This document shows, in pieces, positions 18,490 to 64,000 of a stretch of DNA of 64,000 bases. Made by a program: the position numbers and the translations under genes. The DNA is from Escherichia coli. GTDB taxonomy: Bacteria; Pseudomonadota; Gammaproteobacteria; Enterobacterales; Enterobacteriaceae. Each line of letters starts with the position of its first letter. The first letter of the stretch is position 1. Under the pieces are notes generated by a model. That model was not told the DNA's origin. It saw only the letters and a program-made list of their open reading frames with translations, and searched no databases. The stretch lies in the NCBI RefSeq assembly GCF_030384885.1, contig NZ_CP128613.1; one strand, given 5' to 3'.

Positions 18490-19100
18490 TTAAGTGAGTA
18501 GGCCACCGGAACCTCCCCGACAGCCTCTCGCAGAACCGTACGTGAAACTCTCGCTTCATACGGCTCCCGTCAGGCAAACGCGCTTCCTGGTCCTGCTTTC
18601 CAGTGGGCAAACAACTCCGGCTTCTCTTTTGACAGCCTTTCCATTAGCTGACACGCCTTCGTCTTTCTATACCGCAGGGTTTTATATTTCTTTCTCGCCC
18701 ACGCAATCAGCGTCAGATTAATATATCTGCATACTTTCTTCATCGCTGATTTGTGGTATCTCGCGTAATAATTCAGCCACCCCAATATTATCGGATTCAG
18801 CCACTTCGCAATATCTTCGAGACTCATCTCCACCCTGCGTCTGATCCACAGTTTCCTGAGTTTTCCAATCATGCCTTCGGGTTTACTCATCTCACTGTAT
18901 CTCACATAGGATCAGATCTCGTCTGATCGTTCCCCCTGCGCTCACTACCATGGCTCTTTACCACAGCAGCCGGGGTTGTTTGGGACCGACTTCCGACAGC
19001 AGATCCCGGTGGGCCTGCCACCATCTCTTCACAAGCTTATGCTTATTACATGCAAAACGTCCCGTTTTGCATCTTTGTGCCTACGGCACACCGTGATCTT
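18490..19100 (-). mobile_element. 5'-truncated group II intron remnant (maturase C-terminus plus RNA domains V and VI)
   Basis: ORF 18570..18905 carries a maturase-like motif (WLNPIILGWLNYYARY); downstream on the same strand, about 18532-18566, is GAGCCGTATGAAGCGAGAGTTTCACGTACGGTTCTG, which folds as a domain-V-like hairpin. Confidence 0.6.
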
Positions 19101-20823: not shown

Positions 20824-21075
<252 letters not shown>

Positions 21076-21079
21076 CTAA

Positions 21080-23437
<2,358 letters not shown>

Positions 23438-25686: not shown

Positions 25687-25749
25687 GCATTATGCCCCGT
25701 ACTTTTGTACGGGGTTTGTACTCTGTATTCGTAACCAAGGGGTCAGCTC

Positions 25750-26280
25750 GTGACAACTATAGTAAGCGTACGCCGTAACGGCCATGTGGTCATCGCTGGT
25801 GATGGTCAGGCCACGTTGGGCAATACCGTAATGAAAGGTAACGTGAAAAAGGTCCGCCGTCTGTACAACGACAAAGTCATCGCGGGCTTTGCGGGCGGTA
25901 CTGCGGATGCTTTTACGCTGTTCGAACTGTTTGAACGTAAACTGGAAATGCATCAGGGCCATCTGGTCAAAGCCGCCGTTGAGCTGGCAAAAGACTGGCG
26001 TACCGATCGCATGTTACGCAAACTTGAAGCACTGCTGGCAGTCGCGGATGAAACCGCTTCACTGATCATCACCGGTAACGGTGACGTGGTGCAGCCAGAA
26101 AACGATCTTATTGCTATCGGCTCCGGCGGCCCTTACGCCCAGGCTGCGGCGCGCGCGCTGTTAGAAAACACTGAACTAAGCGCCCGTGAAATTGCTGAAA
26201 AGGCGTTGGATATTGCAGGCGACATTTGCATCTATACCAACCATTTCCACACCATCGAAGAATTAAGCTACAAAGCGTAA
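25750..26280 (+). CDS. hslV: ATP-dependent protease subunit HslV
   Basis: 176-aa ORF recognised as HslV (N-terminal Thr after Met). Confidence 0.95.
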
Positions 26281-40382: not shown

Positions 40383-40481
40383 GCCATATGCGGCGCGAAC
40401 GCCTTACACGGCCTACAAAAGTTTGCAAATTCAATAAATTGCAGAATTCATGTAGGCCTGATAAGCGAAGCGCATCAGGCA
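40383..40481. repeat. REP/BIME element between sbp and pfkA
   Basis: GCCATATGCGGCGCGAACGCCTTACACGGCCTAC and TGTAGGCCTGATAAGCGAAGCGCATCAGGCA. Confidence 0.75.
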
Positions 40482-42582: not shown

Positions 42583-42663
42583 AAATACTCCCGCTATCAA
42601 CTGACGGTAGTATAACGGAAGCAAATCATCTGCAATGCATTAAGCAGTAGGCAAATTGAGGAT

Positions 42664-42727
42664 AAAAAAAACCCCCACATCATGTGGGGGAAGACAGGGA
42701 TGGTGTCTATGGCAAGGAAAACAGGGT
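42664..42727 (-). ncRNA. cpxQ: CpxQ small RNA (processed 3' UTR of cpxP mRNA)
   Basis: segment after the cpxP stop ends in the terminator hairpin CCCCCACATGATGTGGGGG plus U-run; matches my recollection of CpxQ. Confidence 0.55.
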
Positions 42728-42730
42728 TTA

Positions 42731-43231
42731 CTACTGGGAACGTGAGTTGCTACTACTCAATAGCTTCAACGATGAACTTTTTTGCCATTGCGTCACGTCG
42801 CGCAACTGCTCCATTCGTTGTTGATGTTTCTCGTTTAAAACCGCTTGCTGCTCCGGCGTTAACAGGCGATACATTTGGTTGCGGACTTTTGCCATCTCAA
42901 CCTGACGAGCAATTTGCTCATTCGCCATTTTTTCTGCCTGTGCGCGCACAGCGTTTTCATCAAAATTTTCTGCGGTGACAAGGCGATGCATTGTCTCCAG
43001 TTCGCTAACATTAACAGGCGGCTGTTCGTGCCGGGCCTGTTGCATAAGATCTCGCATCTGCTGACGCTGATGTTCGGTTAAACTTATGCCGTCGAACATA
43101 TGGCTCTGCGTACTGCGCTGCGTAAGTTCTTCACCCGGATGCCAGTTATCGCCTGAACCGACTTCAGCAGCGTGGCTTAATGAACTGACTGCCAGCGTTG
43201 AGGCCATGACGGCAGCGGTAACTATGCGCAT
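42731..43231 (-). CDS. cpxP: periplasmic stress adaptor CpxP
   Basis: recognised as CpxP with signal peptide; start moved to second Met. Confidence 0.9.
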
Positions 43232-43310
43232 CATTTGCTCCCAAAATCTTTCTGTCGCGATTCAACGATAGAGAGTTTACGATTCAGGCTGCAAACATGC
43301 GTCAGGGGGT

Positions 43311-43325
43311 GTAAAACAACGTAAA
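43311..43325. promoter_or_regulatory. CpxR box (GTAAA-N5-GTAAA) in the cpxP / cpxRA divergent control region
   Basis: GTAAAACAACGTAAAG between cpxP and cpxR. Confidence 0.65.
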
Positions 43326-45459: not shown

Positions 45460-45544
<85 letters not shown>

Positions 45545-63273: not shown

Positions 63274-64000
63274 ATGCAGGTCAGCAGAAGGCAGTTCTTT
63301 AAGATCTGCGCTGGCGGTATGGCAGGCACCACGGCAGCGGCACTGGGTTTTGCACCCAGCGTAGCACTCGCGGAAACCCGGCAGTATAAACTGCTGCGCA
63401 CCCGCGAAACCCGTAATACCTGCACCTATTGTTCCGTAGGCTGTGGGCTGTTGATGTACAGCCTCGGTGACGGAGCAAAAAACGCCAAAGCATCTATCTT
63501 CCATATCGAAGGTGACCCGGATCACCCGGTCAACCGCGGTGCACTTTGTCCGAAAGGCGCTGGCCTGGTGGATTTCATCCACTCCGAAAGCCGTCTGAAG
63601 TTCCCGGAATACCGTGCCCCTGGTTCTGATAAATGGCAGCAAATCAGTTGGGAAGAAGCGTTTGATCGCATCGCCAAATTGATGAAAGAAGACCGCGATG
63701 CTAACTACATTGCGCAAAACGCCGAAGGCGTGACTGTTAACCGCTGGCTCTCCACCGGAATGCTGTGTGCTTCCGCGTCGAGTAACGAAACCGGCTATTT
63801 AACGCAAAAATTCTCCCGCGCGCTGGGTATGCTCGCGGTCGACAACCAGGCGCGTGTCTGACACGGACCAACGGTAGCAAGTCTTGCTCCAACATTTGGT
63901 CGCGGTGCGATGACCAACCACTGGGTCGACATCAAGAACGCCAACCTCGTCGTGGTGATGGGCGGTAACGCCGCTGAAGCTCACCCGGTCGGGTTCCGCT
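63274..64000 (+). CDS. fdoG: formate dehydrogenase-O major subunit (selenocysteine-containing), 5' part; continues past window end
   Basis: Tat signal (RRQFFK); track ORF stops at TGA 63859-63861 but the frame continues as HGPTVASLAPTFGRGAMTNHWVDIKN..., matching FdoG with Sec at codon 196. Confidence 0.9.

Follow-up and report, generated by a model that had tools for sequence, protein, structure and literature searches.

Does the short untranslated region that separates cpxP from fieF serve only as the transcription terminator of cpxP, or does it also encode a small regulatory RNA? The question arises in a 64,000-nucleotide stretch of the Escherichia coli chromosome, hereafter the window, in which the first-pass annotation had matched the 3′ untranslated region of cpxP to the small RNA CpxQ. 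The segment 42664..42721 on the minus strand is almost certainly the E. coli cpxQ gene, the RNA of which would be released from the cpxP transcript. A 1-kb query around the locus is 100% identical to sequenced E. coli strains, in which it is annotated as fieF, cpxP, and cpxR; the annotation at the cpxP match reads "cell-envelope stress modulator CpxP". The genes cpxR and cpxA are adjacent to cpxP in the window. The layout of the locus is as follows.

43311..43325, plus strand: CpxR box with the perfect consensus GTAAAACAACGTAAA, in the cpxR–cpxP intergenic region upstream of cpxP (motif scan)
42731..43231, minus strand: coding sequence of cpxP, the parental mRNA of CpxQ (list of open reading frames, E. 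coli and K-12 annotation)
42733..42731, minus strand: stop codon TAG of cpxP (sequence)
42730..42728, minus strand: second in-frame stop codon TAA, directly 3′ of the TAG of cpxP (sequence)
42722..42730, minus strand: 9-nt spacer UAAACCCUG between the cpxP stop codon and the mature 5′ end of CpxQ, containing the TAA (sequence, start of K-12 cpxQ)
42664..42721, minus strand: CpxQ, 58 nt, UUUUCCUUGCCAUAGACACCAUCCCUGUCUUCCCCCACAUGAUGUGGGGGUUUUUUUU (identity to K-12 b4716)
42691..42721, minus strand: 5′ part of CpxQ (nt 1–31), upstream of the hairpin, apparently constrained in sequence and holding the putative target-pairing seed (conservation in Enterobacterales)
42715..42704, minus strand: CpxQ nt 7–18, predicted to pair with the nhaB coding sequence (helix scan)
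42672..42690, minus strand: intrinsic terminator hairpin of cpxP and CpxQ, 8-bp stem, loop UGA (terminator scan, fold)
42664..42671, minus strand: U8 tail, 3′ end of the transcript (sequence)
42661..42707, minus strand: unoccupied 47-nt attB core of WPhi-type P2-like phages (identity to phage cores)
41680..42582, minus strand: fieF, the next downstream gene, on the same strand as cpxP and starting 81 nt past the 3′ end of CpxQ (list of open reading frames, annotation)

The start of cpxP given here is the one chosen in RefSeq; an additional in-frame ATG is located at position 43234. Counted from the cpxP stop codon, the U-run ends after 67 nt, and the 38 nt between the second stop codon and the hairpin are unstructured when read on the minus strand. 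A 98-residue open reading frame on the opposite strand within cpxP (42682..42978, plus strand) was treated as a mechanical reading frame only.

The RefSeq record of E. coli MG1655 (NC_000913.3) contains the non-coding RNA gene cpxQ (b4716, "small regulatory RNA CpxQ") at 4106330..4106387. The annotated RNA is 58 nt long, starts 9 nt after cpxP, and ends 81 nt before fieF. The window segment is identical to it in 57 of 58 bases, has the same position and strand, and is also identical in the sequences flanking the 5′ end. The only difference is in the loop of the terminator, at window position 42680, where the window has UGA and K-12 has UGC. The proposed match of the 3′ untranslated region to CpxQ is therefore borne out. 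The bounds of 42664–42727 that had been given for it are exact at the 3′ end; the 5′ bound is placed 6 nt too far upstream, as the processed end is at 42721. CpxQ of E. coli K-12 and Salmonella is reportedly the subject of studies by Chao and Vogel (2016) and Grabowicz et al. (2016), and CpxQ downstream of cpxP is an already known gene, present here as the common E. coli allele in its normal place.

The 58-nt sequence was found in 5423 of 5426 complete E. coli genomes. It is identical to that of the window in 4192 of the genomes, has one or two mismatches in 1223 (K-12 included), and is 90–95% identical in nine. The window thus carries the majority form of the gene in E. coli (4192/5423), and the laboratory strain K-12 the minority form. 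UGA is also the commonest loop among 37 variants of CpxQ from Enterobacterales. In the PGAP-annotated E. coli genomes among the matches listed, no feature lies under CpxQ, and the gene is named only in the curated record of MG1655; the expectation of the first-pass annotation that protein-centred annotation would miss this RNA is confirmed in these genomes.

The roughly 60 nt after the cpxP stop codon had been described as ending in a GC-rich hairpin and a U-run, and the hairpin string CCCCCACATGATGTGGGGG is indeed present without change at 42690..42672, followed by eight T. The terminator scan delimits the hairpin CCCCCACAUGAUGUGGGGG at the same positions, with eight base pairs, six of them G–C, a 3-nt loop, and the U8 tail behind it. 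The complete 67-nt untranslated region folds with −17.4 kcal/mol (z = −2.35), and 5 of 200 shuffled sequences fold as well. The hairpin alone proves little, because matches to the loose terminator pattern are not unusual in the region: two instances were seen in 1.2 kb, against 1.4 expected by chance. The case beyond chance is based on conservation and on identity to the annotated gene, and not on the hairpin alone.

All 37 distinct orthologous terminators, which were folded one by one with the base pairs indexed from the base of the stem, form G+C-rich hairpins of 6–9 bp followed by at least seven U. Equivalent positions of the stem carry C–G, G–C, U–A, or A–U pairs in different variants, so that pairing is kept by compensatory changes. 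RNAalifold applied to a MAFFT alignment of the same 37 variants recovered only three terminator pairs, which is an artefact of the alignment, because variable loop lengths misaligned the stem. A small stem, AGACA/UGUCU, is predicted between CpxQ nt 14–18 and 26–30; all ten of its positions are invariant, and covariation speaks neither for nor against it.

Conservation was analyzed by scanning one genome per species for the pattern CCTGTTTNCCTTGCCAN{25,50}TTTTTT, which yielded at least 120 loci. At least about 110 of them belong to Enterobacterales, including Escherichia, Salmonella, Citrobacter, Klebsiella, Enterobacter, Pantoea, Erwinia, Yersinia, Dickeya, Brenneria, Lonsdalea, and other genera. 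In the approximately 100–110 Enterobacterales loci listed, a homologue of CpxP (48–98% identity) ends about 50–60 nt upstream on the same strand wherever the flank was long enough, and fieF is usually located downstream of CpxQ. The other roughly ten loci listed (L009, L014, L016, L028, L051, L063, L084, L086, L114, and L119) are in genomes of Bacteroidales, Nitrospirae, Chloroflexi, and other unrelated groups and have no cpxP nearby. They were set aside as chance matches to the 21-base pattern, although their number is somewhat above a rough estimate of 3–4.

The first 16 nt of the CpxQ element were set by the search pattern, so that the pattern itself accounts for their invariance. At the N position, which the pattern left free, every locus has T. 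No constraint was placed on the following 19 nt, TAGACACCATCCCTGTCTT, either, and they are essentially invariant in the roughly 110 loci listed. The mean pairwise identity is 47.5% in the 90 nt upstream, which form the end of cpxP, 98.8% in CpxQ nt 17–35, and 22% in the 60 nt past the U-run. These values agree with the published observation that no other part of cpxP is as strongly conserved as the untranslated region (PMC9438474). The alignments and folds indicate two kinds of constraint: on sequence in the 5′ 31 nt, as would be expected of a base-pairing seed, and on structure in the 3′ part, as would be expected of a terminator and Hfq module.

The expression of CpxQ in the strain of the window would, by analogy with K-12 and Salmonella, begin with envelope stress, which would activate CpxR and thereby transcription of cpxP. 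The CpxR box GTAAAACAACGTAAA at 43311..43325 is the only match without mismatches in the 64-kb window, and control of cpxP and CpxQ expression through a CpxR box is known from the literature (PMC4817254, PMC9438474). The transcript would end at the hairpin and U8 terminator. By the same analogy, RNase E would cut it 9 nt past the stop codon, after the last G of the spacer (UG/UUUU, with the slash marking the cut), to produce an RNA with a 5′ monophosphate. The context of the cut, CCCUG/UUUUCC, is identical to that in K-12. The consensus of RNase E is RN/WUU; the U at −2 and G at −1 of the window site do not fit the R at −2, whereas UUU at +1 to +3 fits. The U-tail of Hfq-dependent small RNAs is part of the Hfq-binding module, and the terminator hairpin and U-tail of the window RNA would likewise be expected to bind Hfq. 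The single-stranded 5′ 31 nt would pair with the mRNAs of nhaB, skp, agp, ydjN, fimA, and cfa and repress them. It has been established for CpxQ that RNase E cuts it from the cpxP mRNA, that Hfq sharpens the cleavage and protects the product, that these six targets are repressed, and that CpxQ and the CpxP protein are two arms of the Cpx response to inner-membrane stress (PMC9438474, PMC4817254, PMC10250213).

The putative seed is complementary to the published site in nhaB. The longest uninterrupted helix between CpxQ nt 1–31 and the whole K-12 nhaB coding sequence has 12 bp and joins CpxQ nt 7–18 to nhaB +299..+310, with U7 opposite a G. The published site is about 300 nt into the coding sequence and includes the same G:U pair in E. 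coli (PMC10250213). A global RNAduplex calculation with CpxQ nt 1–31 and the nhaB mRNA was not discriminating, as 134 of 300 shuffled sequences paired equally well, and the scan for contiguous helices was used instead.

Searches of the window with Rfam 15 returned no match at the CpxQ locus at the gathering score, and no family named CpxQ was found between 42500 and 43400 at E ≤ 10. Matches on the sense strand to NsiR1, RyhB, anti-hemB, and OmrA-B, with scores of 16–20 bits, were rejected as weak look-alikes of the terminator that arise by chance. The first-pass annotation had held that CpxQ would be refuted by the lack of an Rfam match or by the lack of sequence identity to CpxQ. The Rfam match is lacking; however, this is not a valid test, because Rfam 15 is without a sense-strand CpxQ model, and the missing match does not count against CpxQ. 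The sequence identity of 57/58 is the valid comparison, and CpxQ passes it. The absence of a sense-strand model is also the reason why PGAP leaves cpxQ unannotated.

The best Rfam match at the locus is to RF02628, Hrs1 ("Hfq-regulated sRNA 1"), which extends over 42664..42736 on the plus strand, antisense to cpxP, with 44.5 bits (E = 3.5e-7), below the gathering score of 56.4 bits. Scores of 59–83 bits, above the gathering score, are reached at six loci of Erwinia and Pantoea (L107:5269-5341, L079:3606-3679, L121:1373-1446, L097:10636-10708, L011:360-430, and L095:3374-3447), and in all six the match is on the strand opposite cpxP and the CpxQ motif. The consensus of RF02628 opens with AAAAAAA followed by a hairpin, which has the look of a reverse-complemented terminator, and its reverse complement aligns with CpxQ over the seed and the terminator. 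In Erwinia amylovora, hrs1 is located between cpxP and fieF with all three genes in one orientation ("> > >"; PMC4070566, Table 1), and Hrs1 has a Rho-independent terminator and is less abundant in an hfq mutant (PMC4070566). What is called Hrs1 in Erwinia is therefore orthologous to CpxQ, and RF02628 appears to have been built on the reverse complement. As it stands, the model would assign the gene to the incorrect strand in Erwinia and Pantoea and fail to find it elsewhere; both faults would be mended by a corrected and broader model.

The orientation of the Hrs1 model implies a functional RNA on the plus strand, antisense to the 3′ untranslated region of cpxP. Such an RNA would account for the plus-strand match in the window and for the Erwinia and Pantoea loci that exceed the gathering score on the strand opposite cpxP. 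It has, however, scarcely any probability, because the model consensus places A7 before the hairpin, the plus strand has no U-run behind it, no promoter-like plus-strand site was found nearby, and hrs1 was described in the orientation of cpxP and fieF. A cpxQ gene on the minus strand that is transcribed from a separate promoter within the last part of cpxP, and is not a processing product, is just as improbable. Some small RNAs from other 3′ untranslated regions, such as MicL, have an internal promoter. A promoter scan of the minus strand from 42722 to 42900, the end of cpxP, however, found no sigma-70-like site, a result in keeping with processing and not with an additional promoter. Furthermore, the mature RNA begins with a run of U, a poor initiating sequence as transcription avoids starting with U (PMC10250213), the release of CpxQ depends on RNase E (PMC9438474), and its natural 5′ end is a monophosphate (PMC10250213).

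It is slightly less improbable, but still very unlikely, that the segment is only the intrinsic terminator and 3′ untranslated region of cpxP, without a trans-acting function. The hairpin and U8 form a standard terminator, and patterns of this kind are as common in the region as noted above. For a terminator, however, structure matters and sequence does not, whereas here the 31 nt that precede the stem hardly vary, next to a cpxP 3′ end with far lower identity. Deletion of nt 1–31 with the terminator kept is reported to change the levels of nhaB, skp, or cfa in E. coli and Salmonella. The curated K-12 annotation presents the segment as a small RNA gene, and target repression has been shown by experiment (PMC4817254, PMC9438474, PMC10250213). 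[quoted passage not shown]

E. coli genomes contain about 670 extra, partial copies of the CpxQ 58-mer, and in 834 E. coli genomes the kilobase that spans cpxR, cpxP, and fieF is not contiguous. A segment of 47 nt, window 42661..42707, which comprises CpxQ nt 15–58 and ATC, is identical in all 47 positions in phage WPhi and in about 60 Peduovirus records. The partial copies correspond to the attachment core of WPhi-type P2-like phages. The attP core of WPhi (L125:1601-1647) adjoins the int gene, 115 nt away, and the site also adjoins int in NZ_JBQJRQ010000002.1 (L122:6001-6045), where the shared core is 45 nt long. This 32.3-kb circular sequence was deposited as E. coli "plasmid unnamed3", but is a complete P2-like phage genome with genes for tail proteins, Ogr, Cox, an integrase, and a replication endonuclease. 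In the lysogen Ecol_542, the attL junction (L123:20001-20058) has the order cpxP, intact CpxQ, int, prophage, so that integration rebuilds the small RNA. Integration of this type, observed in this one lysogen, probably explains many of the 834 split loci. The site has been listed before as "cpxP-fieF: Wphi1 (P2)" (PMC3032704), and the integration position of WPhi has been published (PMC3448106). No prophage is present at the WPhi-type site in the window, where the site is empty.

Every WPhi-type phage carries CpxQ nt 15–58, a segment with the complete terminator, the Hfq module, and a portion of the seed; a lysogen would therefore have a second copy, truncated at its 5′ end, at attR just upstream of fieF. 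It is very unlikely that transcription of this copy, or of the one in the free phage, yields an RNA resembling CpxQ and competing for Hfq or for part of the CpxQ targets; if this were so, the phage RNA would link lysogeny to the envelope-stress response. The CpxQ-derived hairpin was also considered as the terminator of WPhi ogr and rejected, as ogr has its own hairpin and T-run directly past the stop codon, upstream of the core.

Rfam matches elsewhere in the window include group II intron RNA domains at 18493..19022 on the minus strand (group-II-D1D4-2 with 93 bits and Intron_gpII domain V/VI with 63 bits), and the predicted group II intron lies within the stretch of the E. coli chromosome represented by the window. 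An naRNA4 (CssrE) element with 82.7 bits at 45464..45541 (plus strand), just after cpxA, shows hairpins in pairs, as in repetitive extragenic (REP) elements, and ES036 (CssrF) matches with 48.2 bits at 40418..40459 (plus strand), near pfkA. A SECIS element is located at 63856..63914 (plus strand); the corresponding region of Ecol_542 has the formate dehydrogenase genes fdnG and fdoH. The promoter hairpin of ClpQY (hslVU) at 25695..25752 (plus strand) and an L31 ribosomal-protein leader at 21043..21095 (minus strand) were also detected; like the SECIS element, they are cis-elements expected in this DNA.

The finding adds little to biology, because CpxQ is a textbook example of a small RNA derived from a 3′ untranslated region and is present here in the common E. 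coli allele. The practical value is in annotation, as PGAP leaves cpxQ out and the Hrs1 model of Rfam is apparently on the wrong strand.

CpxQ of the window has the same locus, strand, length, seed, processing-site context, and terminator stem as CpxQ of K-12 (b4716) and Salmonella, and differs from the K-12 RNA in a single base of the loop. Hrs1 of Erwinia amylovora (Zeng and Sundin 2014) shares with CpxQ the place between cpxP and fieF, the orientation, the dependence on Hfq, and the Rho-independent terminator; however, it was defined by RNA-seq as a 74-nt RNA that starts about 15 nt further upstream, and it was described as conserved only within Erwinia. The attB of WPhi has a core identical to window 42661..42707, yet here the same DNA serves a further, unrelated purpose, which is not an alternative identity of the segment. 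SdhX, NarS, SroC, and MalH come from other parental genes, have other targets, and bear no sequence relationship to CpxQ, but they have the same architecture, in which the terminator of an mRNA doubles as Hfq module, the region just past the stop codon contains a conserved seed, and the RNA begins with a 5′ monophosphate.
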